Positions 5,626 to 61,047 of a stretch of DNA of 64,000 bases are shown in pieces; the stretch's first letter is position 1, and every line of letters starts with the position of its first letter. The DNA is from Patescibacteria group bacterium. Lineage in GTDB: Bacteria; Patescibacteriota; Minisyncoccia; UBA6257; JAAZHW01. Where the stretch lies: positions 111,057 through 175,056 of the forward strand of contig JAOAGL010000001.1 of NCBI GenBank assembly GCA_026415775.1, written 5' to 3'. The translations under genes and the position numbers were made by a program. The notes beneath the pieces are model-generated. The model did no database searches, was not told the origin of the DNA, and saw only the letters and a list, made by a program, of their open reading frames with translations.

Positions 5626-6293
5626 ACCTGTTGATATGTTTTATTTGCTACTTTTGCAATTTCAGTCATTATCCGATTGGTAGCTTCAATTAAAAACTGG
5701 GGATTTTCATCAATTTCTTTTTGATTTTTTATTTCGAGTTGAAATGGTTTGCCAATTCGAATTTCTTTTTTCGCAAAGAATCCGATAACACCCTCTTTAA
5801 ATCCATAAGTGCTCGGTCCAAAACATCCGATAGGAATAATCTGACAACCACTTATTAAAGCTATTACCGCCGCCCCCCTTTTTCCTTTTTTTAAAGAGGA
5901 AAAGGGATTTCGATGGCCTTCTGGGAAAATAACCACTATATTTCCTTCGTTAATTAATTTAACAGCCTTGATTAAACTTTCGCGCGCTGCTGGCAAATAG
6001 CCAATACTATCCATTCCGAGCGTTAATATTGTGCTTATTACATGATATTTAAGAAAATTTTTCTGGAGATGCTTGGCACCAATAAAGAAAACCTTTTTCT
6101 TTTTAGGTAAAAGATACATTTTAAAGTAGGCATAAAGAGCAGCAGCTATTATTGGCGGATCATAATTATTCTGATGATTAGCAATAATTAAAAATCCTCC
6201 GTCTTTTGGTAAATTTTCCAATCCCTCAATTTTTTCTAATCTCGGTCTGATTAAGGAATAAACAAAAAAATAGAGTAGTTTATAGAATAACAT
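5616..6293 (-). CDS. plsC: 1-acyl-sn-glycerol-3-phosphate acyltransferase
   Basis: H(x4)D acyltransferase motif (IIANHQNNYDP) and FPEGHRN (FPEGTR motif). Confidence 0.75.
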   Translation of the reverse strand: MLFYKLLYFFVYSLIRPRLEKIEGLENLPKDGGFLIIANHQNNYDPPIIAAALYAYFKMYLLPKKKKVFFIGAKHLQKNFLKYHVISTILTLGMDSIGYLPAARESLIKAVKLINEGNIVVIFPEGHRNPFSSLKKGKRGAAVIALISGCQIIPIGCFGPSTYGFKEGVIGFFAKKEIRIGKPFQLEIKNQKEIDENPQFLIEATNRIMTEIAKVANKTYQQVLF

Positions 6294-6363
6294 TCTAAAC
6301 CTCCTTCTAATAAAAATTTTTAAAAACCCACTTTATTTTATTAGTTTTTTTAATTTTTTCAAT

Positions 6364-6543
6364 TGTGCCCTCGGAGGGATTCGCCTACAAGTAATCTGCC
6401 TGACGGCAGATTCTCGCAGGCCGCCCCTCGCGGTGCTCGCCTTTTCCGCTTGCGCGGAAAAACTCGCACATCGCTGCGGGCTTCGAATCCTCCACGCAAG
6501 CAAAGCAGTTTGCTTGCTCGAGGTCACTCTCGCTTTGCTCGAG
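6364..6543. repeat. GC-rich, hairpin-dense tRNA-derived element containing a degenerate copy of the tRNA-Arg 3' end
   Basis: tgccctcggagggattcg (6366-6383) matches the tRNA-Arg 3' end tgccctcgggaggattcg (6544-6561) at 16 of 18 positions. Between them is about 160 nt at roughly 60% GC with perfect hairpins: ctgcc/ggcag, ttttccgc/gcggaaaa, gcaagcaaa/tttgcttgc. It does not fold as a cloverleaf. Confidence 0.5.
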
Positions 6544-6615
6544 TGCCCTCGGGAGGATTCGAACCCCCAATTCCAGTTCCGAAGACTGGCGTGATATCCG
6601 TTTCACCACGAGGGC
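6544..6615 (-). tRNA. tRNA-Arg (anticodon TCG)
   Basis: Reverse complement GCCCTCGTGGTGAAACGGATATCACGCCAGTCTTCGGAACTGGAATTGGGGGTTCGAATCCTCCCGAGGGCA. Canonical arms, anticodon loop CTTCGGA. Confidence 0.8.
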
Positions 6616-6755
6616 TAGAAATTGCAAGTTCTTTTTTAAATTTAATACTTTTCTTTTAAAAATCAACCCCATTGCATATTAAAAGAAAAATTGAAAGAAA
6701 AAATTATGTAAGTTATAATATCCAAAATAGTCAATTTGCCCCTCCTATTCCCCTT

Positions 6756-8279
6756 ATGCGATTTACTATTAAAGATAAGCGAATAGTAATCAAGAGATTT
6801 TTTCTCACTAAAACCTCTTCTTCTTTCACCCTCATTGAACTTTTAATTGTTATCGCTATTTTAGCTGTGTTAATGTCTGTGATTGTTGTTAGCTTGAATC
6901 CCGCAGAAATGTTGAAAAGAACCAGAGATGTGAGACGCCAGGCAGATTTAAAAGCTATTAACTCAGCTTTATTAATTTATTCTGTTTCCAATCCTAATGG
7001 TTTTTTTGGTTCTTCCACCATTGTTTATATCTCCATCCCTTCTAACTATTCTAATTGTTCTGATTTGGGCTTACCGCCACTTCCCTCAGGTTGGTCTTAT
7101 CATTGTTCAAACGCTGATAATTACCGAAAAATTGATGGCAGCGGTTGGATTCCAGTTAACTTTAATTCTTTAGATGTTGGCGCTCCTATTTCTGCTTTGC
7201 CCATTGACCCCATTAATTCAACCACTTCAGGCAATTATTATACTTATGTTACCGGTGGTTCTTGGGAATTAACCGCTCTTTTTGAATCACAAAAATATCG
7301 CCAAGAAAGCGCTCCCGCTGATGGCGGAGATGTGGTGAATGGTTTTGAGGTCGGCAATAATTTAACCCTCACTCCCATTATCTTTCCTCACAACTGGATT
7401 AAAGTGCCGGGCAGTTCTCTTTACGGCACCAATGATTTCTGGGTGATGCAATTTGAAGCTAAATACTCTAAAACCGGTTCTGGCGCTGATGATGCTGGAG
7501 CTTGTTATTATACTTCTGGCTACGATACCTGGGATTGGGGCAAAACCGGAACCGACTGTCCGTCTTCTTGGTCAAACACTAATGTCGTTTCCTCTCCTTA
7601 TGGTTCGCCGATTGCCGGTGTTAGTCATAATGAAGCCAAAGCCATTTGTCAATCATTAGGCGGTCATCTGATAACTAATCAAGAATGGATGACCATTGTC
7701 AGAAATGCTGAGCAAGTGGAAGAGAATTGGTCAGGTGGTTCGGTTGGTTCTGGCTGTCTTTTTCGGGGTAATGTCGGTTCTAACGATGCCTGCGGCTATG
7801 ATGGCGCTAACCCGGAAAAGGGAATTAATCGCAATCCCAAAGCCAAATTAATTCTTTCCAATAATGAAGAAATCTGGGATATGGCGGGCAATGTTTGGGA
7901 ACATGTAATGAAAGATTTAAATGATACTCTGGTCAATAACCATCCTACCATTCTTTCCGACAACACCTGGAAGTGGTCAGAACATACAGCCAGCTGGACT
8001 AGTTATGGTGATCTTTCTTACAATGAAATCAGACCTTCCAATTCTTCTTGGAACGTCAATCAAGGAATGGGCAGGATTTATCATTATGATGGTTATTACA
8101 GCGGCCGTGTTCTGCTTCGCGGCGGGTATTGGGATGGTGGTGACAGTGCCGGGGCGTTGACGCTGTACTTGATATTGGGACGCGACGACTCAGAGCAGCC
8201 CTGTGGGGTTTCGCTGCGCCCGCTGATCCCCGTGAGATACCTCCGTATCTCACGGGGTGAAGGGGTTTTGGTAATTTAA
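6756..8279 (+). CDS. DGR target protein: N-terminal type IV pilin-like methylation motif fused to a C-terminal FGE-sulfatase/C-type-lectin-fold domain carrying the VR. The 3' end as annotated is probably frameshifted.
   Basis: SFTLIELLIVIAILAVLMSV is a prepilin-type N-terminal domain. HNEAKAICQSLGGHLITNQEWM...GNVWEHV matches the FGE/sulfatase-modifying-factor fold. The VR occupies the last codons. ATG at 6756 is the first in-frame Met (the tool's 6672 start is TTG). In the frame set by TR the protein would end ...WDATTQSSPVGFRCAR-TGA at 8226. Confidence 0.7.
   Translation: MRFTIKDKRIVIKRFFLTKTSSSFTLIELLIVIAILAVLMSVIVVSLNPAEMLKRTRDVRRQADLKAINSALLIYSVSNPNGFFGSSTIVYISIPSNYSNCSDLGLPPLPSGWSYHCSNADNYRKIDGSGWIPVNFNSLDVGAPISALPIDPINSTTSGNYYTYVTGGSWELTALFESQKYRQESAPADGGDVVNGFEVGNNLTLTPIIFPHNWIKVPGSSLYGTNDFWVMQFEAKYSKTGSGADDAGACYYTSGYDTWDWGKTGTDCPSSWSNTNVVSSPYGSPIAGVSHNEAKAICQSLGGHLITNQEWMTIVRNAEQVEENWSGGSVGSGCLFRGNVGSNDACGYDGANPEKGINRNPKAKLILSNNEEIWDMAGNVWEHVMKDLNDTLVNNHPTILSDNTWKWSEHTASWTSYGDLSYNEIRPSNSSWNVNQGMGRIYHYDGYYSGRVLLRGGYWDGGDSAGALTLYLILGRDDSEQPCGVSLRPLIPVRYLRISRGEGVLVI
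8100..8224 (+). repeat. DGR variable repeat (VR)
   Basis: Aligns to TR 8742-8865. It differs at TR positions a>t, aa>gg, a>g, t>g, a>t, a>ta (1-nt indel), a>g, a>g, a>g, aa>cc. The last 24 nt (gtggggtttcgctgcgcccgct) are identical and GC-rich, like an initiation-of-mutagenic-homing (IMH) element. Confidence 0.85.
8228..8257 (+). promoter_or_regulatory. Perfect 12-bp stem / 6-nt loop hairpin 4 nt downstream of VR (DGR homing-associated hairpin/cruciform)
   Basis: ccccgtgagata-cctccg-tatctcacgggg. The position immediately 3' of the VR/IMH mirrors the hairpin that enhances retrohoming in the Bordetella phage BPP-1 DGR. Confidence 0.6.
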
Positions 8280-8307
8280 TCTAAAATCTAAAATTTAAAA
8301 AACTTTC

Positions 8308-8667
8308 ATGTTAAACGATTTGATTGTTTTTCAAAAGACCTATGATTTTTACGTTTGGCAAAAAACTATTATTCTTCATCTAGCCAAAGTTCATAAATAT
8401 AGTTTGGGTATCCAATTAGAAAACGAAACATTAAATCTTTTAAAACAGATAGTCAAAGCAAATTTAAGCCGAACAGCCAAAAAAGAAGAAATAGAAAATT
8501 GTTTAGTATCTTTGGAAATTATTAAAGTTTTGATAAGGGTCGGCCACGAATTTAACAGAGAAGGCGGGATTAGTTTGAAAAATTATCAACTAGCATCAGA
8601 GAAACTTGCAGAAATCGGAAAATTGTTGGGTGGCTGGTTGAAAAATTTCAGCGGCCGGGCGCTTTAA
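8308..8667 (+). CDS. avd: Avd-like accessory variability determinant (four-helix-bundle protein family)
   Basis: 119 aa. LIVFQKTYDFYVWQK near the N-terminus and ISLKNYQLASEKLAEIGKLLGGWLKN at the C-terminus resemble the four-helix-bundle (23S rRNA intervening-sequence protein) family to which Avd belongs. Sits between the target and TR. Confidence 0.7.
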   Translation: MLNDLIVFQKTYDFYVWQKTIILHLAKVHKYSLGIQLENETLNLLKQIVKANLSRTAKKEEIENCLVSLEIIKVLIRVGHEFNREGGISLKNYQLASEKLAEIGKLLGGWLKNFSGRAL

Positions 8668-8741
8668 TGGCATTATAAGCCGTAGAGAATCCGGCCGCCC
8701 CGTTCTGTTTTTTACAGGACGGGCGGGGGATAAAATCAATA

Positions 8742-8865
8742 AGCGGCCGTGTTCTGCTTCGCGGCGGGAATTGGGATAATGGTGACAATGCCGGGGCGTT
8801 TACGCTGAACTTGAATTGGGACACGACGACTCAGAACAACAATGTGGGGTTTCGCTGCGCCCGCT
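8742..8865 (+). repeat. DGR template repeat (TR)
   Basis: Invariant donor copy of the VR. In the frame matching the VR it carries 8 AAY (Asn) codons (aat, aat, aat, aac, aat, aac, aac, aat) and encodes ...NNNVGFRCAR. Lies in the avd-RT intergenic region. Confidence 0.85.
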
Positions 8866-8989
8866 TCAGTGGTTATAATTTGCCAGAACTTTGCCTTTTC
8901 TTTGGAAAGGCGAAGGTGTGCTTTACAAAACCCCAGATTTTATTCCCTCCCGATATGATTTTATCATAGGGAAAATATTAGGCTTTTAC

Positions 8990-9037
8990 CCCGAGGCAGT
9001 GAAAGTAGTTAAATTATTACGAAATTTCTGCCTCGGG
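8990..9037 (+). other. 10-bp stem hairpin within the structured TR-RT spacer
   Basis: cccgaggcag...ctgcctcggg with a 28-nt loop. Additional small hairpins nearby: atgat-ttt-atcat and acgtc-ttgcgat-gacgt. DGR TR-spacer RNAs are known to be structured and needed for cDNA priming. Confidence 0.4.
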
Positions 9038-9080
9038 CCATTAAGCCCCCTTTTAATATAACGTCTTGCGATGACGTAAA

Positions 9081-9103
9081 TATAGATATAGATATAGATA
9101 TAT
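9081..9103 (+). repeat. hexanucleotide microsatellite (TATAGA/ATAGAT, about 3.5 units) abutting the RT start codon
   Basis: tatagatatagatatagatat directly precedes and overlaps the ATG at 9102. Confidence 0.6.
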
Positions 9104-10142
9104 GTTTGATAAAATCTGCTCTTTTCAAAATTTATACTCAGCTTATTTAAAAGCGCGAAAAGCCAAAAGATATCGGCCTTATATTTTAGAATTCAATTTT
9201 AATTTAGAAGAAAATTTACTGAATCTCCAAAAAGATTTATTAAACTTGACTTATCAGCCAGGACCATATCGTCAATTCACTGTTTGTGATTCTAAAAAGC
9301 GGCTCATTAAGGCGCCGGCGTTTCGTGACCGCATCATCCATCACGCTTTATGCAATGTCATTGAGCCGATTTTTGACCGAGGATTTATTTTCGACAGTTA
9401 TGCTTGCAGGAAAAATAAAGGCACCCATCGGGCAGTTAAAAGATTGGGGAATTTCATTAAATCATTAAAAACGCGTTTGGGGGAAAGTACGACCAGTGTC
9501 GAAACTTATTGCCTTAAATGCGATGTTTCCAAATATTTTGAAAATATAGACCATAATCTTTTGTTAGGTTTTATTGCAAAGAAAATTAAAGATAAGAGAG
9601 TTTTCTGGTTGATTAAACGAATTATTGAAAGCGATTCGCCGGGGATACCCATTGGCAATTTAACCAGCCAGCTTTTCGCCAATATTTATTTGAACGAATT
9701 AGACCAGTTCATAAAACATTATTTAAGAGAAAAGTATTATCTTCGCTATATGGACGATTTTTTAATTTTAGATATCAATAAAAAGCGATTGCATCAAATT
9801 AAGCGCCAAATTCAAAAATTTTTAAGAGATAAATTAAGATTAGAATTACACCCCAAAAAAGCCAATATTTTTCCGATAAATAAAGGAATTGATTTTTTGG
9901 GTTATAAAATATTTTTTAATTATCGTTTGCTGCGCAAAAATACCGTTAAACGTTTTATTAGAAGATTAAAAAAACATCAACAACAATTAAAAAATAATTT
10001 AATAAAAATTAATGATTTTAAAAAAACATTTTACTCTTGGTTGGTTTATGCTCAATTTGGAAAATCTTGGCGATTAATAAAAGATTTAAAGTTTAAAGAA
10101 AGACTTTGTTCAATACATAATGCCAGATATATATTATATTAG
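9102..10142 (+). CDS. DGR reverse transcriptase
   Basis: 346 aa. RT motifs include PGIPIGNLTSQLFANIYL (the DGR-RT-specific motif 4, as in Bordetella Brt IGNLTSQ) and the catalytic YMDD (RYMDDFLIL). Confidence 0.85.
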   Translation: MFDKICSFQNLYSAYLKARKAKRYRPYILEFNFNLEENLLNLQKDLLNLTYQPGPYRQFTVCDSKKRLIKAPAFRDRIIHHALCNVIEPIFDRGFIFDSYACRKNKGTHRAVKRLGNFIKSLKTRLGESTTSVETYCLKCDVSKYFENIDHNLLLGFIAKKIKDKRVFWLIKRIIESDSPGIPIGNLTSQLFANIYLNELDQFIKHYLREKYYLRYMDDFLILDINKKRLHQIKRQIQKFLRDKLRLELHPKKANIFPINKGIDFLGYKIFFNYRLLRKNTVKRFIRRLKKHQQQLKNNLIKINDFKKTFYSWLVYAQFGKSWRLIKDLKFKERLCSIHNARYILY

Positions 10143-10221
10143 ATTTTGTTAAACTTCAATCTCAGGGCATTTTTAATCATCGGCATTGTCAATTTAATGG
10201 ATTTAAGATAAGATAAGAAAG

Positions 10222-14555: not shown

Positions 14556-14656
14556 AATTATTTTCAAAAACCCCTTTCCTTGACAAAATATAAAAATAAA
14601 GTAGAATTTAGGCAGCTTTTTGAAAAAGAAAATTTTTTTTAAAAGGAGGTTTTACA

Positions 14657-16074
14657 TGAAAAAAAATTTAGGAGTGTTTGTGGTACTGCTGCTGCTGGCA
14701 ACAGCGGCAGCTGGGCAAGAAATTGAGTTGAAGGAGCTGGGAAGGGCTCCTTTGAGTCCATATCTCCAGTCCCCAGCGGAGGTAAGAACTCTTCTCGGTC
14801 GCGTGAATGAAGAGCTGGGCAGGGCTTTGGATTTTTTCCCTGGTGGAGGGCTCGGCGAACAAGTTTATGCCTCTCTCTATGAACAGTTGCAGAATTTGAA
14901 AATGGAAGTAGTAGATATTCATCCAAACCAAAAAATGGTTTGGATGATGTACTCGAAGGGACGTCTCCTGAAGTCGGTGGTTTGGAAAGGCAATGAGTCT
15001 TTCCAAGCGTACAAGTTCCGGCTGGAAGTGGAGGGAAAAATTTTTACATTTATAGTTCCAATTCGTTGCGGCAACATCGCGCTTCTCGAAATGCGAGAAG
15101 CGCCGGTAGCTCCACAACCACCAGCTCCAGTTCCACCGGCTCCTCAACCGCCAACTTCGCAACCACCAGCTCCTACTCCGCAGCCAATCCCAGTTCCGCA
15201 ACCGCCAGCTCCTCAGCCAACATCGGTGACTCCGGTCATGGTTCATTGGACTCCCACTATAAAAATAAAAGTGGGAGGGGGATGGGCAGGAATAAAATTT
15301 CCCGCACCAGTAGATTTTTCCAGCTCACGCGTTGACTTCTTCTCTCTTATTCCCGCTGATTCCTCCGTCTTCTATTGCGAAGACGGGGTAGCCTTCTGGT
15401 ACTACAGTCCTAGAAACTCCATTCCCTTTGCCGTCGGCCAGAGCGTACCGCTCTGGCGGCACGAGGTGGTAGAAATTCAGAAGGGAAAGAATTTTCCCTT
15501 CTACGCGCAGATAGAAATCGAGTTCGCGCGTAATTTATTCATTACCGGATCCTTTTTCGAACTCGGAAAATACTCTTCTTTCCAATACGAAGGAAAGGAG
15601 AGTATGGTATTGGACGAGGTACGTCTCCTCGGCCAATACCAGGGACAAGAAGGGCAGACCTGCCCCCCCACGTACGTCTATTACGTGGGGTTACACCGGG
15701 ACTGGCATGAAATCCTGGTCCGGGAGAACATCCGGATTCAGGAGTTTTCAGCTGGTATTTCATACCAGCTGAAGGTGGTGAGGAATGTTTTTGTCACCCC
15801 GCAGGGTGGGGTGACGTGGCAGACCCGGCGGGGTACCCGAGTGACGGATACCACTATTAGCAAGTGGTATCCGTTTAAGGAGGCCCCTCTCGAGAAAGAG
15901 AGGGTAACCGAGGTGGTGGAAAAGGTAAAATCCACCACAACCCACCCTTATGTGGGGATTGGGTTGGAAATCGGTCCCTTCTTTCTCGAAGGTCGCCGTC
16001 TGTTCGGCGACCAGCCGGGACCAATGAAAATCTCTCCCTGGCGTGTCCAGGGAGGGATCCTCCTAAAAATTTAA
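14657..16074 (+). CDS. secreted Pro-rich-linker protein with C-terminal beta-rich (barrel-like) domain, encoded in a compositionally foreign GC-rich island
   Basis: Strong SD (aaggagg) 7 nt before the ATG at 14657. Signal peptide MKKNLGVFVVLLLLATAAAGQE. APVAPQPPAPVPPAPQPP linker. C-terminal half has alternating hydrophobic beta-strand periodicity. Codon usage is GC3-rich (ctg, ggc, ccg), unlike its neighbours. Confidence 0.6.
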
Positions 16075-19437: not shown

Positions 19438-19971
19438 ATGAAAAATAGAGGGTATACTTTGGTGGAAATTTTAGTGGTTTTGGGAGTGACGGCTTTATTA
19501 AGCGGCCTTTTGTTTGTTTATAGTCGACAAGGTGAAAAAATCGGTGAAATTATGAGGGTGCGAGCGCAGGTTGTATCAGATATTAATCGAGTAAAAAATT
19601 TAGCTATTACAGCTGCCACTTGGCAAGGGCAATTAACTTGTGGTTATGGTATTTATTTTGATATCCCAAACAATCAATATATTATTTTTACTGATATTTC
19701 TGCTGATTGTAAATCATCGAATCATTTACGCAACCAAGCACAAACTCAGGATGTAGAAAGAATAAAAACGCCTCAGCGATTTACGTTGGTTAATACTAAT
19801 GTTCAACAAGTATTTTTTATGCCACCTCAACCATTTGTTTTTTTTGATGGTCAAGCAGCTGAGAAGCAAAGTGCAATTGAAGAAGTTGAGATTACATTTG
19901 GTTATTTGTCTGATATAGACCCAGCCTTTAAAGTTTATATTAATTCCATTGGTCAAACTTGGGCTTATTAA
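19438..19971 (+). CDS. type IV pilin / pseudopilin (prepilin-type N-terminal methylation domain)
   Basis: MKNRGYTLVEILVVLGVTALL is a class III signal peptide (G-[FY]TL[IV]E). Confidence 0.7.
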   Translation: MKNRGYTLVEILVVLGVTALLSGLLFVYSRQGEKIGEIMRVRAQVVSDINRVKNLAITAATWQGQLTCGYGIYFDIPNNQYIIFTDISADCKSSNHLRNQAQTQDVERIKTPQRFTLVNTNVQQVFFMPPQPFVFFDGQAAEKQSAIEEVEITFGYLSDIDPAFKVYINSIGQTWAY

Positions 19972-20467
19972 AATGAAAAAAAAGATTCAAACAACAAAAA
20001 ATGGTTTTAGCATTATTGAGGTAGTAGTAGCAATTGGTGTTATTTTAATTGCCTTTACAGGCATGCTCACTTTAATTAATCGTTCTTTAGCTTTTCATGA
20101 TTTGGCTTATAGTCGCCTAATTGCTTCTTATTTAGCACAGGAAGGCATAGAAATTATTAGAAATATCCGCGATAATAATATTTTGCAAAATAAAAATTGG
20201 AATGCTGGATTATCAACGGGCACTTATCAAGTGCAGTATAATGATTTAGCGTTAAGAAATTATACTGGCGAGCCATTAAAGCTGGATACAGTAAATGGTA
20301 TTTATAATTATGATTCGGGTTCGATTACGCGTTATATAAGGCAGGTTGATATAACAACCATTTCTTCTGACCATATTTTTGTTAAATCAATTGTTACATG
20401 GAAAAATCGCGGCGGCTCTTTTGATATTGTGGTCGAAGATCATTTATATAATTGGCTTGGCGATTAA
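19949..20467 (+). CDS. pseudopilin (prepilin-type N-terminal domain)
   Basis: KNGFSIIEVVVAIGVILIAF. Confidence 0.65.
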   Translation: MVKLGLIKMKKKIQTTKNGFSIIEVVVAIGVILIAFTGMLTLINRSLAFHDLAYSRLIASYLAQEGIEIIRNIRDNNILQNKNWNAGLSTGTYQVQYNDLALRNYTGEPLKLDTVNGIYNYDSGSITRYIRQVDITTISSDHIFVKSIVTWKNRGGSFDIVVEDHLYNWLGD

Positions 20468-20976
20468 TGAAAAAAAATAATCCTCAATTAACGGGTTTTA
20501 CTTTAATTGAAATATTGGTGGCTACAGCAGTGTTTTTAACGGTGATTAGCATTACAACTGCTACATTTTTAACCAGTTTGCGTACCCAGCGTTATCTTTT
20601 GGCTTCAATTAATGGTACAGCCAACCTTGCTTATGCTTTGGAAGTAATGGGACGAGAAATTCGTATGGGTAAAAGTTTTTTTGCTCCAACTGAAGACACT
20701 CTAAATTTTCTAAATGTTGATAATGATGCCATTGTTTATCGTTTGAATTCGGTTACTCAACAGATTGAAAGGTCAATCGGAGGCGGGCCATTTAAAACTT
20801 TAACGTCGCCAGATGTTCGCGTTTTATCTTTAAGATTTATTATTAGTGGCGCCGAGCGCCAAGATGGACAACAGGTAAAAGTAACGATTTTGCTAAAAGT
20901 AGCTTCATATGCTGGTCGAAGACAAATTGAAAGCAATATCCAAACAACCATCAGTAGTCGTCAACCAGAAACATAA
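20452..20976 (+). CDS. pseudopilin (GspJ/PilW-like)
   Basis: LTGFTLIEILVATAVFLTVI. Confidence 0.65.
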   Translation: MAWRLMKKNNPQLTGFTLIEILVATAVFLTVISITTATFLTSLRTQRYLLASINGTANLAYALEVMGREIRMGKSFFAPTEDTLNFLNVDNDAIVYRLNSVTQQIERSIGGGPFKTLTSPDVRVLSLRFIISGAERQDGQQVKVTILLKVASYAGRRQIESNIQTTISSRQPET

Positions 20977-20977
20977 A

Positions 20978-21319
20978 ATGAATAAAAAAATTTTAAACAA
21001 TAAAGGTCAGGCAATGCTCATTACACTTTTGATTTTGAGCGCTTCATTTTTAATTGCGATGGCTTTGGGTAGTTTGGTTTTATACGAATTAAGATCAATG
21101 ATTTTTACTGGTGAATCAATTAAAGCTTTGTATGCTGCCGAGAGTGGTTTAGAGTGGAAATTATTTGAAAATATAAAGGGTGTTTTAATTGAAGCGCCGA
21201 CAATGACTAATAATTCTTCGTTTGAAGTTTCTGTTTCTAATCCGCCTGCTGGTGGGACACTGATAAAATCAATAGGACAAAGTGGAAACAACTTTAGAGC
21301 TTTGGAAGCATCTTTTTAA
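20978..21319 (+). CDS. minor pilin-like protein (PilX-like)
   Basis: ATG at 20978 is in frame with the tool ORF. NKGQAMLITLLILSASFLIAMALG is a hydrophobic N-terminus lacking the conserved Glu5, as in PilX-type minor pilins. Confidence 0.5.
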   Translation: MNKKILNNKGQAMLITLLILSASFLIAMALGSLVLYELRSMIFTGESIKALYAAESGLEWKLFENIKGVLIEAPTMTNNSSFEVSVSNPPAGGTLIKSIGQSGNNFRALEASF

Positions 21320-34597: not shown

Positions 34598-37500
34598 ATG
34601 TTTAAAAAAAGATTTTGGATTATTTTATTTTTACTAATTTTTCCTTTTAAATCATTTGCTTATGATAATTTAACTACTCATCCAGCCCTAACTTCAGAAA
34701 TTGTAAAATTTTATAATAATTTTTATACCCCAAAAATAAATGAAGAAGAAAGAAATTGGTTAATAAATGGAAGTACAAAAGAAGATGAACCCATTTCAAG
34801 AACATTAAATCATTTTTTTGACCCAGTTTACAATAGAGGTTTAAACAATGAAATTAATGCCGGCGCCTTAGCGCCATTTTTAAGAATTTTAAAGCCCTTT
34901 ATTCAAACCGCCAAAGAATGGGCGCAAAATTCTTATAAGCAAGCCATGTTTTTAGGAGAAGCTTACAAAAATGCCGCTTTAAATCCATATGCTCAATTAA
35001 CCAAAAGCGCAGTAGAAATTTTAAGTGTTCATACTTGGGAAAAGGCTATTTATAACTATATTATTGGTAATAAAAAACAAGCTTTTGAGGATTTAGGACA
35101 TGTTTTGCATCTATTGGAAGATATGGGTGTGCCAGCGCATACGCGGAATGATCATCATTTAAGAGGTGATGATTATGAAAAATATACTTCGCAATTTACA
35201 AAAGAAAATATTAATATTATCTCTCAATTAAAAGATAAAAAACCTTTAGTATTTAATAAGTTAAATGATTACTTTAATGATCTAGCTTCATATACTAATA
35301 GTCATTTTTATAGCCAAGATACTATTGGTATTCAAAGTGGTTATAATCAACCAGAATGGAATTATTTAGAAACAAAGAGTATAAACAATAAAATATATAG
35401 TTTCTCTGAAGACGAATTTGGTTTTTATTATCTATTAAGAAAAGATATAAATCAAGGAATTATTATCTCAACCCAGCCCACTTTAATTTTAGATGCACTA
35501 ATCCACGAATCCTACTGGTCTCATTTATCAAAAAAAATAGTTTTATCGGGCGCCGGCGTTTTAAGATTATTTTTTGAGGAAGTAGAAAAATATCGTGATG
35601 ATCAAGAATTTTTGAAAAAAATGCGAAAAACGTTATTTGCGATAATGATTGATAATTTTAAAAAGAATTTGGGTTTAATTAATGAGGATGAGCAAAATTT
35701 TAATCAAAATGAGAATCAGACAAAAGTAGGTTTATCAATAGAATCTGATTTATCGCCAACAACTCAAGAAATCTCACAACCCGTTATTTTATCATCACCA
35801 GTACCACAAAATCAGGAACAATTTCAAGAAATTGAGATTTTGCAAAATCAAATTACACCAAGCCCAATTATTACGCCAACCCCAATCGTTACTCCTTCGC
35901 CTACTTTTCCTCTTTCAATCACACCAACTCCTTTTTCTAATTCAGTAAGCCAAATAATTTCTGCAAATTCAACTATTATTGCTTCTTCAGAAACACCATC
36001 TCCATCACCTTCTTCATCTCCCTTCTTAACACCAACCATTACCCCCTCTCCTACTCCACCTTCAAAAATTTTAATTTCCGAAATTTTATATGATGCGGGT
36101 CATGGAGATGAGGGTAAAGAATTTATTGAATTATATAATCCCAATGATTTTGCGGTAGATTTGAGTGGGTGGTCACTGAGGATTATTAAAAATAATAGCA
36201 CAAGTTCAAATTCACTGGCTACTATTAAAACAACAGATAAAAATAATACTATTCCAGCCAGAGGTTTTTATTTAATTGGCTTAAACGATTATGACGCAAC
36301 AAATTATAATGGAGTAGTTGCTGATATTATTCGTTCTTATAGTTTGCCCGATGCATCAGATGATAACGTTTATACTATTTATTTAATTAAAGATAATGAA
36401 ATAATAGATTCAATTACTTATGATAAAAATATGGCTGTACCAAGCAAAAGCTTAGAAAGAAAAGCAAAAGAAAATTCTACGTCAGAATCAATGAGTATCG
36501 GGGAGGATAAATTTTTAGGTAATGGCTATGATAGTGATTCAATGGATGATTTTGTTATTCGTGATCCTCAACCACAAAATTCTTTAAATCTATCTGAACC
36601 ACGTTCAAAACCTACATCCCCAAAACCTATTGAGAATAAAAACAACATTGTTTTTTATGAGACTCAAACTAACAGTTTAATATTTCAATGGCTACCATCT
36701 TACGATGCAAAAAATTCATCAGAAGGAATTATTTACAGCATTTTTGTAAAAAAAGAAGACAATTTTTTGCTTTTAACTTCCACTTCTGCTTTAGAGTTTA
36801 TTTATCCTCTGAATAATGAAGAAGAAAAAACTTTTGATTTTAAAATGATAGCATATGACAGAGACCAATTGGCATCAGATCCAATTTATTTTAGCGCAAA
36901 TATAGAAGGATTAATTTTTGTGCAGGATGTTGATTCTGAACAATCTATGGCCAGTTGGTATTCTGATAATTGGTATCGTTTAGGACGAGGCTTTTCCGGC
37001 ATTCTTAAATCTTTAACTTTGAAAGGATATGTTAATGATAATGAGCCATATGAATCAATTATTACTTTGAAAGAATTTGAGGATGAAAATTATACTATTG
37101 AGTTGGCTTCATATTTAATTTTATCAGATGGAATATCTTTTGCTTCAACAGCAAAAGAAGTGAAAATTAATAATCTAAACATTCCCTTAAATCCTTATTC
37201 TTATTATCGTTTAGATGTTTACCAAAGTCGACAAAATCGAAGCGTGATTTTATTAGGCACAACAGCAACGGGCACTGCAATGTATAATGATCATGTATTT
37301 GGAGTAGGCAAAAAAGAATTTATTTATGTATTTTATCCTTTTATAAAAATGGAGGGAATTTTAGGATCAAAGGTTGACTTTTCTATACCCCAACCTCCAA
37401 CGATGCCGGAATTGAAATCTGTTAGCTTTGATAATCTAGCTGAAACTATTTATCTTGAATGGTCATCATCAACCGATCTTGATTCATTGGATTCAGAAAT

Positions 37501-38176
37501 TGTTTATGAGTATAATGTTAGTTTGAAAGATTCTGATTTTGATGAGACAAAATGGCGATCTGTTGGGAAAAATTTAAACGCAATTATTCCCGTGAAATTC
37601 CCTAATCAATATAAAATTGGCGTGAGAGCAGTAGATAATTTTGGGATGCATTCGGATGTAAGAATTCTTGAATGGCAATTTCCGTCAGATTTTGTCATTA
37701 TTCAAGAACAGCGCGAGATGGAAGATAAAGAATTTAACCCCAATCCTTATGTTTTAGCTCAGATTTTTGTAGCTAATCAATCGGGTTATGTAAAAGGTTT
37801 AAAATTATTTGCTCAACAATTTTTTGGTCAATCAACAGGAGATATGCAGGTGTTTTTGTATAATACTGATAATTATGAAAATATTTCAGAGAATAATTTG
37901 ATTGCATCATCTGATAAGATTGTATTATATGGCGGTCAGCAAGGAGGCGAGATAATAGTTAGGTTTAATCAGTCACCATTTTTAGAAAAGGATCATAAAT
38001 ATTTATGGGCAGTTTATTTTAATAAAGTAACTTCTAATTTTAAAGGAACATGTACTGATAATTTATCAGAAGGTTTTGCTTCGGCAAGATTCGGAAGCAA
38101 TAACTGGGTTGTAGGTGATTGCTATGTGGCTCCATTAGATTATTATTTTGTCTTAATTGGTTCAACAAATGAATAA
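34598..38176 (+). CDS. large secreted multidomain surface protein (Zn-dependent phospholipase C/S1-P1-nuclease-like N-domain, P/S/T-rich linker, lamin-tail domain, FN3-like repeats)
   Basis: Signal peptide. W..H...GHVLHLLEDMGVPAHTRNDHH (Zn-PLC-like His/Asp ligands). TPSPIITPTPIVTPSP linker. ILISEILYDAGHGDEGKEFIELYNPNDFAVDLSGWSL is a lamin-tail (LTD) signature. Confidence 0.5.
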   Translation: MFKKRFWIILFLLIFPFKSFAYDNLTTHPALTSEIVKFYNNFYTPKINEEERNWLINGSTKEDEPISRTLNHFFDPVYNRGLNNEINAGALAPFLRILKPFIQTAKEWAQNSYKQAMFLGEAYKNAALNPYAQLTKSAVEILSVHTWEKAIYNYIIGNKKQAFEDLGHVLHLLEDMGVPAHTRNDHHLRGDDYEKYTSQFTKENINIISQLKDKKPLVFNKLNDYFNDLASYTNSHFYSQDTIGIQSGYNQPEWNYLETKSINNKIYSFSEDEFGFYYLLRKDINQGIIISTQPTLILDALIHESYWSHLSKKIVLSGAGVLRLFFEEVEKYRDDQEFLKKMRKTLFAIMIDNFKKNLGLINEDEQNFNQNENQTKVGLSIESDLSPTTQEISQPVILSSPVPQNQEQFQEIEILQNQITPSPIITPTPIVTPSPTFPLSITPTPFSNSVSQIISANSTIIASSETPSPSPSSSPFLTPTITPSPTPPSKILISEILYDAGHGDEGKEFIELYNPNDFAVDLSGWSLRIIKNNSTSSNSLATIKTTDKNNTIPARGFYLIGLNDYDATNYNGVVADIIRSYSLPDASDDNVYTIYLIKDNEIIDSITYDKNMAVPSKSLERKAKENSTSESMSIGEDKFLGNGYDSDSMDDFVIRDPQPQNSLNLSEPRSKPTSPKPIENKNNIVFYETQTNSLIFQWLPSYDAKNSSEGIIYSIFVKKEDNFLLLTSTSALEFIYPLNNEEEKTFDFKMIAYDRDQLASDPIYFSANIEGLIFVQDVDSEQSMASWYSDNWYRLGRGFSGILKSLTLKGYVNDNEPYESIITLKEFEDENYTIELASYLILSDGISFASTAKEVKINNLNIPLNPYSYYRLDVYQSRQNRSVILLGTTATGTAMYNDHVFGVGKKEFIYVFYPFIKMEGILGSKVDFSIPQPPTMPELKSVSFDNLAETIYLEWSSSTDLDSLDSEIVYEYNVSLKDSDFDETKWRSVGKNLNAIIPVKFPNQYKIGVRAVDNFGMHSDVRILEWQFPSDFVIIQEQREMEDKEFNPNPYVLAQIFVANQSGYVKGLKLFAQQFFGQSTGDMQVFLYNTDNYENISENNLIASSDKIVLYGGQQGGEIIVRFNQSPFLEKDHKYLWAVYFNKVTSNFKGTCTDNLSEGFASARFGSNNWVVGDCYVAPLDYYFVLIGSTNE

Positions 38177-40183: not shown

Positions 40184-40256
40184 GGGCGCATAGCTCAGCG
40201 GTTAGAGCACAGACCTTATAAGTCTGGGGTCGATGGTTCGAATCCATCTGCGCCCA
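40184..40256 (+). tRNA. tRNA-Ile with UAU anticodon (AUA decoder)
   Basis: GGGCGCATAGCTCAGCGGTTAGAGCACAGACCTTATAAGTCTGGGGTCGATGGTTCGAATCCATCTGCGCCCA. Anticodon loop CTTATAA, so positions 34-36 read TAT. Confidence 0.7.
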
Positions 40257-40382
40257 CACTTTTTTTATTTTTTTATTGTTTTATAATCAATAAAAGAACC
40301 GCCTAAAACTTTGGCGGAAGACTCTTGCAAATTTTTAGTTTTTCTGGTATAATTAAAGTGTTGTCGATAAACAATAAAAAAT

Positions 40383-54374: not shown

Positions 54375-55193
54375 ATGAAGAGCAAATATTTACAATTAAG
54401 CATAGGAATTTTTATCTTTGCGATTTTTATTTCTTTTTTGATTTTGCAAAACAATAAAACAAATAGTTTAAATGAAAACAACTTAGCTGTGGTTAATTCA
54501 GCTAAAATTAATGCCCCTTCTTCTTTTTCGTTGGAAAAATTAAATCAAAAATTAGCAGCGGATATAGAATCGTTGGATATTAAAGATGAAGATAACCTAA
54601 CTTTAAAAGTGGCTAATGAACTAGCCTCACAAATTATTTCTTTAAACGCCAATAACGATTTGTCCTCGGGAGAATTAATGGTGCCGAACGAGGAATTATT
54701 TAGCGCTGAAATGATTGAGAAATACAAGAATTATTTTTTGGAAAACTTACCTATTACCACTTTTGCTGAATTAAAATTTATCTCAAATGAACAGCCGCCA
54801 TTCACCTCTTTTAAATATTTTGTTGAAACAATAAAAATTTTATATGACAACAAATTAACTGATGATATCTTCCAAGAAAAAATCCAGAGTTTTCTTGATA
54901 ATGAAAATCCAACCTTTTTTAGCGACACAATTAATGATTTAAATTTAGCAATTACCGATTTGAAAAACTTGCCTATTCCCACCTCTTATGCCAATTTGCA
55001 TTTGGACTTGATTAATCTTTTAAACACAAAACTTTCAATACTAAAGGCGCTTTATAATTACCAAAAGGATCCAGTGAGCGCCTTGGTTGCCTCTCAACTG
55101 CTTGAGGATTTGGATACTGCCTATCAGCAATGGATGGCGGCAATGATGCGGAAAATGGAAAGCGATGGTTCGATTAAATATTTTAAGTTTTAA
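54375..55193 (+). CDS. hypothetical membrane-anchored protein
   Basis: N-terminal TM and extracytoplasmic domain. Starts the T4SS-like cluster. Confidence 0.4.
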   Translation: MKSKYLQLSIGIFIFAIFISFLILQNNKTNSLNENNLAVVNSAKINAPSSFSLEKLNQKLAADIESLDIKDEDNLTLKVANELASQIISLNANNDLSSGELMVPNEELFSAEMIEKYKNYFLENLPITTFAELKFISNEQPPFTSFKYFVETIKILYDNKLTDDIFQEKIQSFLDNENPTFFSDTINDLNLAITDLKNLPIPTSYANLHLDLINLLNTKLSILKALYNYQKDPVSALVASQLLEDLDTAYQQWMAAMMRKMESDGSIKYFKF

Positions 55194-56741
55194 ATGAGCA
55201 AAAAAACATTTGCCATTATCACTTTAATTGCTATTTTACTCCTTAATTTAGAAGGGGTTATTGAGGTTAAAAAGGCCAATGCCCAAGTTTCCCTTCCTAC
55301 TGTTGAAAGATCTCTGCCCCCCATACAAGATATGGAACCAGTTATAGAATCAGCACCAGAAGTATACGATGCCGAAAATTGGGGCGAGGTGATGGTTTGT
55401 TCCACGGGGATTTACCAGAGGATTAGTAGTTGGATAAATACCGCATTATCAGTTGTTCTTAATCCAGTTTGTCAGATGTTGGGTCGCGCTTTTAGTTTTT
55501 TGGGGATTGGGGGTACAGCTGTTTCAGGAGAGTGTATTATAAATACTGGTGGCGCTGATACAACCCAGCAATGTAAAGAATGGGTAGCGAAAAAGAAAGC
55601 TTCTTTAAAGGCGAAAATGGCAGAAATGACAAAGTTGTTGTTAAGAATTACGGTTAAAACATTTATGGATCGTCTAGTTTCTAATGCTGTTGACTGGATT
55701 AGCGGTAGAACAACAGGAGATCCTCAGTTTGTTACCAATTGGAGACAATTTTTTAGTGATGTAGTTAATGAAGCATTTGGATTCTTCATTGAAAACTCCC
55801 CATTTTCTCAATTATGCGAACCATTTCGTTATACAGTGCGAGTTGGGACTACTTTGCCTGGTAAGCCACCATTCCCAACTTGTACTTTATCTAGAGTGGT
55901 AAGCAATATTGAATCTTTTTATGATAATTTTTCTAATGGCGGATGGTTGGCGTTTGAGGAATCGTTTTATCCTTGGAATAATGCTTTTGGGGCATACTTG
56001 ATGACCCAAGAATCTTTAAATGCGGAATTGACCGAGGCTCGCGAAGAAGCAGAGAAAAAGACACAAAGCGGATATAAGCCGACTGAGTGGTGTATTAAAA
56101 CCAAAAAAGATCCTGCTACTGGGCAAGAGATATGTGTAGAAAAAGTGGTAAGTATTCCTGGCGAAGCAAAATCCGATGTAACCTCAAAAGTTTTAACCAA
56201 TCAACTTGATAAAGCAGATACATATTTCTTAACCTCAGCTGATCTTAAAGGTTATGCTGAAATGATTGCCCAAGCCATAATGAGTCGTTTGATAAAATCA
56301 GCTAAAGAATTATTGATTGGTGGCAAATGGTATGGTAAGGGGTTATTGAATTTGCCGGAAAAGGGTGATTCAGGTCCATCTTTAAATTTGCGTTATGCGT
56401 GTAAAACATATGGAGGTTCAAAGGTTTGTGAGATTGATGCAGATGGGCCCTATTTTTCCAAGGAGAGTTGTGAAGCGGTTTGTAGTGGTTCATCAATACG
56501 ATTTAAATGCGACGCCCAATTACAAATTTGTGTAGCTGATCCAAACGGCAATTATAGTGATTATGATTCTTGTAATCGAGTTTGTTATCCTACAATAACT
56601 ACCCCTCCGCCATCAGAAAATCGTTATAGCTGTAATGAAACCGAAGGGCTTTGCGAATTAGACCCCAATGGTGATTTTACCAGCCTGACTAGTTGTCAAA
56701 AATATTGTGGTAGCGAACCACCTCCACCGCCGCAGTATTAA
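55194..56741 (+). CDS. secreted cysteine-rich protein with three tandem C-terminal Cys4 modules and a poly-Pro tail
   Basis: Signal peptide. C-terminal YACKTYGGSKVCEIDADGPYFSKESCEAVC, FKCDAQLQICVADPNGNYSDYDSCNRVC, YSCNETEGLCELDPNGDFTSLTSCQKYC. Ends EPPPPPQY. Confidence 0.5.
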   Translation: MSKKTFAIITLIAILLLNLEGVIEVKKANAQVSLPTVERSLPPIQDMEPVIESAPEVYDAENWGEVMVCSTGIYQRISSWINTALSVVLNPVCQMLGRAFSFLGIGGTAVSGECIINTGGADTTQQCKEWVAKKKASLKAKMAEMTKLLLRITVKTFMDRLVSNAVDWISGRTTGDPQFVTNWRQFFSDVVNEAFGFFIENSPFSQLCEPFRYTVRVGTTLPGKPPFPTCTLSRVVSNIESFYDNFSNGGWLAFEESFYPWNNAFGAYLMTQESLNAELTEAREEAEKKTQSGYKPTEWCIKTKKDPATGQEICVEKVVSIPGEAKSDVTSKVLTNQLDKADTYFLTSADLKGYAEMIAQAIMSRLIKSAKELLIGGKWYGKGLLNLPEKGDSGPSLNLRYACKTYGGSKVCEIDADGPYFSKESCEAVCSGSSIRFKCDAQLQICVADPNGNYSDYDSCNRVCYPTITTPPPSENRYSCNETEGLCELDPNGDFTSLTSCQKYCGSEPPPPPQY

Positions 56742-56754
56742 AATTTACTGAAAT

Positions 56755-58707
56755 ATGCTAAGAAAGATAAAAAATATACTTAAAAAAATTAAATTGAGAA
56801 AATTGTCTTTGACTCAAGGGGTGGTTTTGGGTTTGTTTATAAATTTTATAGCAGTTTTTAAAACCCATGCACAAACCTCCTATATTACTTCAAAAGTCAT
56901 TTATGGTATTTTTAGTTGGATTTCACATCTAATTGCTATTATTGCTTCTCAAATCATTATTTTAGAAGCAAAACTCTTGGCTTTAATTATTAATGCTTCC
57001 GTCTTTACAAAAATGCCCGTTGTTCAAACAGGATGGCGAATCGCGCGCGATTTCACCAACATCTTATTTATAATAATTTTAATTTACATTGCTTTTTCTT
57101 ATATTTTGAGAGTGCAATCAAGAGCAACAAAAGGTTTATTGGTCAAAATGATTATTATGGCTATTTTGATTAATTTTAGTTTGATGATTGGCGGAGTTAT
57201 TATAGATTTTTCAAATATGTTTTTCAGATATTTTATTTTCGGTTCTTTGGGCGGAGATTCGAGTGGTTTAAGTGGTGTCAGATTTACTAATGCACTAGCT
57301 GATGCTTTATCATTGCAAACATTTATGAAAAGTCAGTCTGTTCAAGAACCTACAGCTACCTCTACACCAGCAGAGTGGCAAACATGGGTAGAATCACAAA
57401 TGGCGGGTGCTCAAGAAAAAACTGCTTTGATGGGGATTGCAAAATTAATGTTTACCATTATCTTTAGCTTTTTAATGATTATAATTTTTGGCGCTCTCGT
57501 GGGTATTTTATTTGTTCGTCTTTTCTGGTTGTGGATTTTATTAATTTTTGCTCCTCTGGCGTGGGTGATATCGTTAATTTCAATTCCCGGCACGCCGGGC
57601 AATATTGCTAAGCAGTGGTGGGATAAATTTTTGCAGTGGTGTTTTGTAGCTCCAGTAATGGGATTTTTCATTTATTTAGCTTTAGAGACAGCGGGTCATG
57701 TTAAACAACTGACCATTCCTGATAGAATAGTAACTGGAATGAGTTCTGTAATGTATAACCTTCAAGAAATAATGCAAATGTTTTTAGTGGCTGGTTTTAT
57801 TGTTGCGGGGTTGATAGCAGGGGAGAAAATGGGAGCAAAAATTGCTGCTAAGGCGCATGGTATTGTAACCTCGGCTGGCAATAAAGTAAAAGGAGCTGTT
57901 AAAAATAAAGCTTCTTTATGGGCATTGCGAGCTGCTAATGCTCCGGCCACTGGTTTGGAAAAAGCCGCTAGTAAATCCGATGTAGCAAAAGCGCTAATCG
58001 GAATCACTGGATTGGGCATGGCTAGTCGTTATGTTTCCCGCAAAGCCGAGGAGGCTGAAAGTAAGGATTGGAATGAGAGAAAGAAGAAGTACGAATCTGT
58101 TGGCGTTGATCAATTAAAGAAAATGGCTAATTCAGCTTTGATGCCGGCCGAAAGAGCGGCAATGTTCTCGGTTTTAGCTCAAAAAGGAGGAATTGATGAT
58201 TCTAACAAAGATCAAGCTATATCATTGTTAAATAGGTATGATAAAGATTCTTATAAGAAAGTTTTAAGTGAACACCCTGAATGGCATCCTGCTGTTCAAA
58301 CAGCGGTCAAGAGTAATGATATACAACAAGTAAAAAATGTTATTAAATCAAATTCTGACATTGATATAAATAAATTTAATATTAGCAAAATTAAAGATGA
58401 AACTATTCTTTCAGCTGTTGTTGAGCTAAAGATTGATTTGGATCCAGAAAAAGCAGCATTAGAATTAAGAAATCTTGATTTAGATTTGTTAAATAAATTA
58501 ACCACGCATATTAAGGAAAGATTCAAAGGTTTAGATATTGAAAGCAAAAAAGAATTTGCCAAAAAGATGAAAAGTGGTTATACCGGTCGACAATGGTTTA
58601 ATGCAAATTTAAACGCTGATTTAGAAGCAGCATTAGAAGAAGAAGCATTAAAAGAACAAAAACAAAAAGAAGAAAAAGAAGAACCGAAAGTTAAATTGTA
58701 TAAATAA
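56755..58707 (+). CDS. polytopic membrane protein, possible VirB6/TrbL-like T4SS channel component
   Basis: At least 8 TM helices in the N-terminal two-thirds, then a hydrophilic K/E-rich C-terminal domain. Sits in a cluster with a VirB4 ATPase. Confidence 0.4.
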   Translation: MLRKIKNILKKIKLRKLSLTQGVVLGLFINFIAVFKTHAQTSYITSKVIYGIFSWISHLIAIIASQIIILEAKLLALIINASVFTKMPVVQTGWRIARDFTNILFIIILIYIAFSYILRVQSRATKGLLVKMIIMAILINFSLMIGGVIIDFSNMFFRYFIFGSLGGDSSGLSGVRFTNALADALSLQTFMKSQSVQEPTATSTPAEWQTWVESQMAGAQEKTALMGIAKLMFTIIFSFLMIIIFGALVGILFVRLFWLWILLIFAPLAWVISLISIPGTPGNIAKQWWDKFLQWCFVAPVMGFFIYLALETAGHVKQLTIPDRIVTGMSSVMYNLQEIMQMFLVAGFIVAGLIAGEKMGAKIAAKAHGIVTSAGNKVKGAVKNKASLWALRAANAPATGLEKAASKSDVAKALIGITGLGMASRYVSRKAEEAESKDWNERKKKYESVGVDQLKKMANSALMPAERAAMFSVLAQKGGIDDSNKDQAISLLNRYDKDSYKKVLSEHPEWHPAVQTAVKSNDIQQVKNVIKSNSDIDINKFNISKIKDETILSAVVELKIDLDPEKAALELRNLDLDLLNKLTTHIKERFKGLDIESKKEFAKKMKSGYTGRQWFNANLNADLEAALEEEALKEQKQKEEKEEPKVKLYK

Positions 58708-58743
58708 AATAAAAAACAGAAAATTTTTTAAACAAATAAAATT

Positions 58744-59919: not shown

Positions 59920-59931
59920 AAATTAAATAAT

Positions 59932-60336: not shown

Positions 60337-60338
60337 TT

Positions 60339-61043: not shown

Positions 61044-61047
61044 AAAT

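Follow-up and report, generated by a model that had tools for sequence, protein, structure and literature searches.

Diversity-generating retroelements (DGRs) are enriched in Patescibacteria, where their targets mostly lack recognisable domains (PMC8144416). What one such element diversifies is the question raised by a locus in a 64,000-nt stretch of DNA from a Patescibacteria group bacterium (JAOAGL010000001.1, positions 111,057–175,056 of the forward strand; assembly GCA_026415775.1). We call this whole stretch the window, and coordinates refer to it unless a related locus is named. At 6756–10142, on the plus strand, the window holds a target gene, an avd gene, a template repeat (TR) and a reverse transcriptase (RT) gene, in that order, and very probably these form a chromosomal DGR of the candidate phyla radiation (CPR) that diversifies a lectin borne on a pilin.

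Results

An adenine-specific repeat pair with Avd and a DGR-type reverse transcriptase

The cassette comprises the following parts:

6756–8226, plus strand: DGR target gene in its functional frame, 489 amino acids, interrupted by a +1 insertion at 8173
8100–8224, plus strand: variable repeat (VR), 125 nt, located with a repeat finder and by direct alignment
8308–8667, plus strand: avd (accessory variability determinant), 119 amino acids, Pfam bAvd PF22296
8742–8865, plus strand: TR, 124 nt, with 25 adenines and eight AAY codons, nearly invariant across samples
9102–10142, plus strand: DGR reverse transcriptase, 346 amino acids, RVT_1, with IGNLTSQ in motif 4 and YMDD

The order target-avd-TR-RT with all expected parts, as claimed in the original prediction made from the letters of the DNA, was borne out, and both Avd and the DGR-type RT are intact. 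The two repeats had been described as identical except at 11 substitution sites. Base-by-base alignment, tabulated per TR base, upholds the 11 substitutions, but the VR also contains a 1-nt insertion, the T at 8173. Ten of the substitutions are indeed at TR adenines (A→T twice, A→G six times and A→C twice), and the only non-adenine substitution is a T→G change (TR 8801, VR 8159). Given 25 adenines in 124 nt, the hypergeometric probability of at least ten of 11 substitutions falling at A is 1.9e-7. The adenine-biased TR/VR pair is therefore real and far beyond chance, and adenine-located differences were found both here and in five other alleles of the same gene.

Read in frame, the TR translates as SGRVLLRGGNWDNGDNAGAFTLNLNWDTTTQNNNVGFRCAR and has the eight AAY codons that had been claimed for it. 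No stop codon can arise by mutation of its A-containing codons, and the TR gives access to about 6.7e14 protein variants. The VR lies within the open reading frame (ORF) of a lectin-fold target, with the frame broken at 8173 in this genome. No further VR-like copies or second targets of the TR were found on either strand of the window.

The SQ motif in RT motif 4 is diagnostic of DGR RTs, and the RT encoded here carries both IGNLTSQ and YMDD; in our RT alignment (A6) the GxPIGNLTSQ and Y.DD columns are invariant. Among PDB sequences the protein is far closer to the Bordetella phage DGR enzyme bRT (8ub7, E 1.7e-58) than to group II intron RTs (4.7e-24 or weaker) or a retron RT (2.1e-09). It also matches PHROG 1423 with 426 bits and, at 346 amino acids, has no maturase or endonuclease domain. 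The motifs and PDB matches together place it in the DGR clade. The proposed Avd-like ORF was confirmed by the Pfam bAvd profile (E 7.5e-18, 65.4 bits, cut-off 40) and by the PHROG annotated as 'Avd protein of DGR' (E 5.5e-17). Its score with NCBIfam DivGenRetAVD (72.4 bits) is under the cut-off of 80 for that model, and a PDB sequence search with Avd gave nothing meaningful.

Natural alleles vary within the VR and carry indels in AAY codons

We compared the members of the target's 90% identity cluster, which are six alleles from seven samples (DNA of loci L001–L006 and the window). Outside the VR these genes differ at only 1–7 of 1,344 nt (0.07–0.5%), and inside it alleles of equal length differ by 8–17%, at TR-adenine positions. 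Across samples, differences among the TRs are confined to one or two AAY wobble positions, with RT and Avd about 100% identical. Such confinement of variation to the VR, next to a near-constant TR, supports the view that the element is active in nature, and VR divergence between samples is what ongoing mutagenic retrohoming would leave. The VR-specific hypervariation anticipated by the original prediction was thus seen, between samples.

Three of the alleles carry indels, four in all, each of them inside an AAY codon. In the window allele an insertion lies in AAT-25. The VR of L001 has lost its frame through the deletion of 1 nt in codon AAC-16. L002 and L003, which were assembled independently from two runs, share an identical VR in which AAT-13 lacks 1 nt and AAC-16 has gained 1 nt; the members of this −1/+1 pair are about 12 nt apart and together restore the frame, giving WGMVTYAG instead of WDNGDNAG. 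Four of the six alleles are in frame, one of them by compensation, and the other two are probably null. In an earlier survey, TR/VR length differences occurred in 7% of 372 DGRs, 74% of the indels adjoined AAC, and RT slippage was given as their likely cause (PMC5758913). On the strength of that survey and of the location of the indels in AAY codons, we judge the frameshift at 8173 to be probably real rather than an artefact of assembly. The VR indels appear to be side products of the error-prone reverse transcription that also generates the substitutions.

The insertion accounts for the form of the deposited gene, for which two further features are relevant:

8173, plus strand: one T more than in the TR, within an AAT codon (TR 8814–8816), causing a +1 frameshift of the VR
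6691–6719, plus strand: promoter-like site, TTGAAA-17-TATAAT with 11 of 12 matches (a consensus match only), 37 nt upstream of the ATG at 6756

The deposited ORF (6756–8279) encodes 507 amino acids from the ATG, or 535 from a TTG at 6672 (GenBank MCX8015812.1). Because of the extra T its tail consists of 35 out-of-frame residues, ending ...YLILGRDDSEQPCGVSLRPLIPVRYLRISRGEGVLVI at 8279. Without the extra base the protein has 489 amino acids and ends ...NWDATTQSSPVGFRCAR, with a TGA at 8224–8226, so that the ORF end originally assigned to the target was mistaken and the functional ORF is 6756–8226. The frame-corrected ending ...YLNWDATTQSSPVGFRCAR is also that of about 94 of the 120 closest homologues. 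Residues R486 and C487 of the restored ending are invariant in the family; the deposited allele therefore probably encodes a misfolded lectin module and, lacking the invariant C-terminal strand (GFRCAR), is probably null. At the other end of the gene, the ATG at 6756 is favoured as the true start because the promoter-like site overlaps the extension that begins at TTG 6672. The number of promoter-like sites in the region is not above shuffle expectation.

The target joins a pilin module to a C-type-lectin fold

Three parts of the target protein can be distinguished:

6816–6884, plus strand: prepilin (class III signal peptide) motif, residues 21–43, SSS/FTLIELLIVIAILAVLMSVIV, Pfam N_methyl and TIGR02532
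6825–7379, plus strand: pilin module, mature residues ~24–208, with an alpha-1 helix (26–78) followed by beta-sheet, and invariant Cys101 and Cys117
7383–8223, plus strand: C-type-lectin / formylglycine-generating enzyme (FGE)-fold ligand-binding module, residues ~210–489

The pilin and C-type-lectin/FGE-fold architecture proposed for this protein is supported at three levels: motif, fold and family. At the level of the motif, the N-terminus has what is expected of a type IV pilin signal, namely a small residue before the predicted cleavage site (SSS/FTLIELL, between Ser23 and Phe24), Phe at +1, Glu at +5 and a hydrophobic stretch, with a non-canonical Ser at −1. The motif scores 25.8 bits with Pfam N_methyl (cut-off 21.2) and 19.0 with TIGR02532 (cut-off 16.3), and F24 and E28 are invariant in the family. 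At the level of the fold, an AlphaFold2 model of P0125, a natural in-frame allele, has a pLDDT of 90.8 and a pTM of 0.86 and contains two confidently modelled modules: a pilin module of about 185 amino acids, in which a long alpha-1 helix packs on an antiparallel beta-sheet, and then a C-type-lectin-fold module of about 280 amino acids, of which the VR encodes the last 41 residues. A pilin module joined to an independent functional domain is the composition of a modular pilin. In a fold comparison the closest match of the lectin module was TaqVP (PDB 5vf4); a PDB sequence search with the target gave weak pilin and SUMF2 matches only.

A database search with the target returned 804 homologues, whose source names are Parcubacteria, Paceibacterota, Wolfebacteria, Minisyncoccia or simply Patescibacteria. 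Nearly all full-length homologues have G, A or S followed by F-T-L-(I/V)-E-L, and end in RC(A/V/S)(R/K). Prepilin peptidase sites require a small residue at −1, and in the family this residue is always small (S in 54, G in 30 and A in 18). About 8% of the family members in the protein database have aberrant C-termini. In species-representative genomes the cassette target-avd-TR-RT, with adenine bias in its repeats, is retained at about 22 further loci, and neither a TR nor an RT lies within 6 kb of about 12 full-length copies of the target.

The N-terminal pilin module (190 amino acids) is all that many more genes have in common with the target; these encode sister proteins of about 400 amino acids in total, with a Laminin_G_3 / ConA-like lectin C-terminus. 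These sister modular pilins, which are not associated with DGRs, were seen in L040, L045, L064, L068 and about 40 other loci (L039–L084) and recur several times per genome, with five loci on the 805-kb chromosome OY970216.1.

We also surveyed the element from the RT side, where 80 metagenome loci retrieved by RT profile yielded 12 complete adenine-biased targets. Four of the 12 have a prepilin motif and the other eight have other N-terminal signal or transmembrane anchors before the lectin fold, so that what this RT clade has in common is a lectin anchored at the surface, for which the pilin module is one anchor among several. The ordinary anchors on those eight targets (L092, L094, L106, L109, L117, L125, L144 and L146) conflict with what surveys have said of CPR DGR targets, namely that recognisable membrane features are lacking.

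Candidate recognition elements after the VR and in the TR-RT spacer

Three noncoding features may take part in retrohoming:

8202–8224, plus strand: G+C-rich VR 3' end (TGTGGGGTTTCGCTGCGCCCGCT) resembling an initiation of mutagenic homing (IMH) site, identical to TR 8843–8865
8228–8257, plus strand: perfect inverted repeat of 13 bp around a CTCC loop, which may form a hairpin or cruciform for target recognition
8942–8977, plus strand: conserved TR-RT spacer element, ATTCCCTCCC-hairpin-GGGAAAATA

The IMH-like end, for which we follow the IMH concept of an earlier DGR survey (PMC5758913), is 23 nt long, and the last mutated adenine is upstream of it. The inverted repeat begins 3 nt past the VR and has no counterpart after the TR; its predicted hairpin (−17 kcal/mol, z −5.2) was matched in stability by none of 200 shuffles. 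By sequence, then, an IMH-like end and a downstream inverted repeat are both present. Hairpins occur after the VR in 34% of DGRs, and an inverted repeat at that position supports retrohoming in the Bordetella and Legionella elements (PMC5758913).

The strict pattern of the spacer element occurs once in the window (0.02 expected) and once per locus in 19 related loci (L001, L005–L007, L010, L017, L019, L020, L088, L089, L092, L094–L096, L102, L112, L118, L121 and L147), in every case on the same strand as the RT gene and ahead of it, at about 90–130 nt from the RT start where both coordinates are known. Across loci it reads ATTCCYTY-variable hairpin-GGGAAAATA, and with looser matches it is present in about 24 of 42 related DGRs. 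Because the sequence of the base stem (UUCCC/GGGAA) is conserved, little covariation is on offer; the distal stem is of variable sequence and length, and two loci retain just a GAAA loop in its place. By analogy with the spacer of the Bordetella phage BPP-1 DGR, the element probably belongs to the DGR RNA, as a clade-specific part recognised by RT-Avd. The TR-RT spacer is about 200 nt in most relatives and is enlarged to 680–1,234 nt in L029 (8336–9569) and L027 (4180–4859), which suggests insertions into the cassette.

Genomic surroundings and other features of the window

The cassette is flanked by housekeeping genes (acyltransferase, tRNA-Arg, CCA-adding enzyme, tRNA-Pro and Sua5), and L001 and L006 have the same cassette neighbours. 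No phage genes were found around it. Rfam, applied to the whole window at the gathering threshold and to 6250–10200 by E-value, gave no match in the DGR region except the adjacent tRNA. Outside the DGR there is one candidate partner of the target:

19438–21319, plus strand: minor-pilin-like operon of four genes

This is the pseudopilin operon that had been reported 11 kb downstream. Its ORFs are ComGD/GspH-like, PilV-like and GspJ/ComGF-like, plus a fourth without the motif; three of the four pass TIGR02532, all three with Gly at −1, and the operon resembles a minor-pilin set.

Several other features of the window caught our attention. Near its far end, a PrgI-family protein and a VirB4/TraG-like P-loop ATPase (59932–62850) are preceded upstream by several large ORFs without a Pfam match (54375–59919). 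Together (54375–62850) they look like a type IV secretion or conjugation-like cluster. The PrgI/VirB4-like genes turned up in the Pfam scans for pilus assembly genes but are unrelated to these. Just downstream of tRNA-Arg (6543–6615), on the minus strand, lies a G+C-rich stretch of about 180 nt (6363–6542) in an otherwise A+T-rich genome. The tRNA 3' end is repeated there (6365–6383 versus 6543–6561, 89% identical), a T-arm-like segment also lies inside 6363–6542, and neither ARAGORN nor Rfam calls anything in it; a tRNA copy in decay, the scar of an old integration and an unknown RNA are all conceivable. The ORF at 14620–16074 is a spike in GC content (52% versus about 32%). It encodes a signal peptide and a long Pro-rich linker (PQPPAPVPPAPQPP...), and its C-terminal part is beta-rich; the ORF has no Pfam match and is probably that of a surface protein. 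In the 1,192-aa ORF at 34598–38176 the only recognisable domain is a Lamin Tail Domain (residues 486–609). Finally, a tRNA-Ile with anticodon UAU is encoded at 40184–40257. Such a tRNA is uncommon in bacteria, in which AUA is usually read by a lysidine-modified CAU tRNA.

Discussion

By homology with BPP-1, an RNA spanning the TR and the downstream spacer would be reverse-transcribed by RT-Avd, which would misincorporate opposite template adenines, and the resulting cDNA would replace the VR. The recipient would be marked by the G+C-rich IMH-like end and the hairpin downstream of the VR, and an intact TR would let a later round of retrohoming restore the frame of a null allele. The most likely function of the target is that of a hypervariable adhesin, located either at the tip of a type IV filament or at the surface through its pilin helix. 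With such an adhesin an ultra-small cell, probably an episymbiont, could bind host or particle ligands that change. From the fold and the family we lean towards display of the lectin head on a type IV filament.

Several observations weigh against this interpretation. The residue at −1 of the target is Ser and not the canonical Gly found in the genome's three pilin-like ORFs, so that its prepilin processing is putative. None of the peptidase, assembly ATPase or platform genes (PilB/PilC/PilD/PilM) was found among the approximately 48 ORFs of the 64-kb window scanned by Pfam. Essentially no pilin genes adjoin the cassette in 33 related loci, and the cassette sits outside any pilin cluster both in the window and in relatives. 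Given this lack of nearby assembly genes and of a pilin cluster, the case for pilus display rests on features of the protein. The hairpin after the VR has a comparable counterpart in only a minority of relatives and is not conserved across the family. Moreover, the deposited allele is out of frame, so that a functional protein may not be made in this genome, and the indel itself may be an assembly error in a heterogeneous region.

How the target is held and whether it is intact are the points on which other explanations come closest. The insertion at 8173 might be an assembly or sequencing artefact, with the population's real gene in frame. Metagenome assemblers handle natural heterogeneity of the kind seen in the VR badly, and four of the six alleles are in frame; however, mixtures of substitutions alone create no length changes, the indels of three independent alleles always lie in AAY codons, the compensated pair is identical in two runs, aberrant C-termini recur in about 8% of database family members, and the 7% of surveyed DGRs with TR/VR length differences have them mostly next to AAC (PMC5758913). 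We therefore consider an artefact possible but doubtful. Alternatively, the protein might be a surface lectin that is held by an uncleaved pilin-like helix acting as a signal anchor and is never polymerised, in which case the DGR would diversify a surface receptor. Ser rather than Gly at −1, here and in about half of the family, the failure to find pilus assembly genes nearby and the ordinary signal or transmembrane anchors of eight of the 12 complete RT-clade targets are all in keeping with such an anchor. On the other side, the motif scores above curated prepilin cut-offs, with Phe+1 and Glu+5 invariant and −1 always G, A or S, and the helix is followed by a full pilin-fold module that also bears other lectin heads, as in characterised modular pilins. 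We regard a permanently anchored lectin as unlikely, if less so than the explanations that follow.

Hypervariation might also serve evasion, if the protein were a phage or predator receptor diversified to escape, with null alleles selected for the same reason. Two of the six natural alleles are null, and an arms race has been raised for cellular DGR targets by Roux et al. (PMC8144416). Nevertheless, the variable residues are at the ligand-binding surface position of DGR lectin folds (TaqVP being the closest), sister proteins bear conventional lectin modules and there is no evidence of phage, all of which makes evasion improbable. Two further possibilities hardly merit belief. One is that the locus is an inactive DGR remnant, or a group II intron or retron RT beside an ordinary duplication; the VR is indeed frameshifted, and the NCBIfam model that best matches the RT is that of group II intron RTs, whose cut-off of 300 bits is far above the 157 bits reached. 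We tested this idea and it was not supported: RT and Avd are intact and do not differ between samples, the TR is conserved, VRs diverge by 8–17% among genes otherwise 99.5–99.9% identical, the mismatches are adenine-specific, and the RT matches bRT far better than it does group II intron RTs and has no maturase or endonuclease domain. The other is that the target is a formylglycine-generating or SUMF1-EgtB-type enzyme, the name that NCBI gives to several homologues and one that the Pfam FGE-sulfatase match would favour. Only positions 65–203 of the 255 in that profile are matched, however, so that a full-length catalytic domain is missing and we rejected this candidate; the C-terminal part of the domain is the hypervariable region, and the EgtB model, with a cut-off of 360 bits, gives a score of 15.5.

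Our preferred explanation thus remains a CPR DGR that diversifies a pilin-borne lectin. A broader proposal, that this family, with hundreds of members across Paceibacteria-type Patescibacteria, is the first DGR hypervariation on a type IV filament, in an episymbiont adhesin for host or particle recognition, and that frameshifts in AAY codons act as a resettable phase-variation switch, can be put forward only tentatively.

The element resembles the BPP-1 DGR (mtd-avd-TR-brt) in its gene order, its adenine-specific differences and AAY codon design, the position of the VR at the extreme 3' end of a C-type-lectin-fold gene, and a G+C-rich IMH-like end followed by an inverted repeat, and bRT is the closest solved relative of its RT. 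Unlike the BPP-1 element, which is carried by a phage, it is chromosomal and lies among housekeeping genes, its target is a pilin-type cell protein rather than a tail-fibre protein and its spacer element is specific to its clade. IMH and IMH* are also identical here, unlike in BPP-1, and donor and recipient must therefore be distinguished by downstream sequence. TaqVP of Thermus aquaticus (5vf4) matches the lectin module only, the N-terminal pilin module being an addition here. Host group and cassette type are those of previously surveyed CPR DGRs (the CPR set of Wu et al. 2018, PMC5758913; clade 2 of Roux et al. 2021, PMC8144416), with which the element also shares frequent indels and non-adenine substitutions, reported for CPR DGRs by Wu et al. 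(PMC5758913); whereas the targets in those surveys mostly lack recognisable domains, an N-terminal type IV pilin module is identifiable here.

Grafting of a binding module onto the C-terminus of a pilin module is known from the modular pilins PilB and PilC of Streptococcus sanguinis (PMC8179133), and the ConA-like lectin type of PilC is also borne by the sister proteins described above, but in our target the grafted module is rewritten by a retroelement. Dataset S1 of Raynaud et al. 2021 lists the IPR012902-IPR005532 combination (prepilin motif plus SUMF domain) in eight proteins, with no link to DGRs or hypervariation (PMC8179133). As in the tip adhesins of Bacteroides Type V pili, a DGR would here diversify the adhesive component of a pilus, but pilus type (strand-exchange assembly in a diderm), phylum and target family all differ (bioRxiv 10.1101/2024.11.15.621889). 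A recent survey of DGRs includes 'GspG-type pilin' among the rare domains that hold a VR (PMC11661182), and type IV pili have been implicated in host attachment of cultivated Saccharibacteria (PMC11623550). Our literature search, whose coverage did not extend to Paul et al. 2017, found no paper stating that a large family of CPR DGR targets consists of modular type IV pilins. The DGR mechanism, the enrichment of DGRs in CPR bacteria, VR indels and the prepilin-SUMF architecture were already known, and what we add is a modest insight at the level of the family.

The known mechanism of DGRs is unchanged by these findings. The comparison between samples does provide direct evidence of natural activity and indicates that the errors of the element include frameshifts that inactivate its own target. 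Surveys left open what the abundant DGRs of Patescibacteria diversify, and one large target family can now be read as a pilin-borne lectin; this family and the otherwise-anchored targets of the RT clade both point to recognition at the cell surface. A hypervariable pilus-tip adhesin is thus a testable hypothesis for how uncultivated relatives of Saccharibacteria may find their partners.

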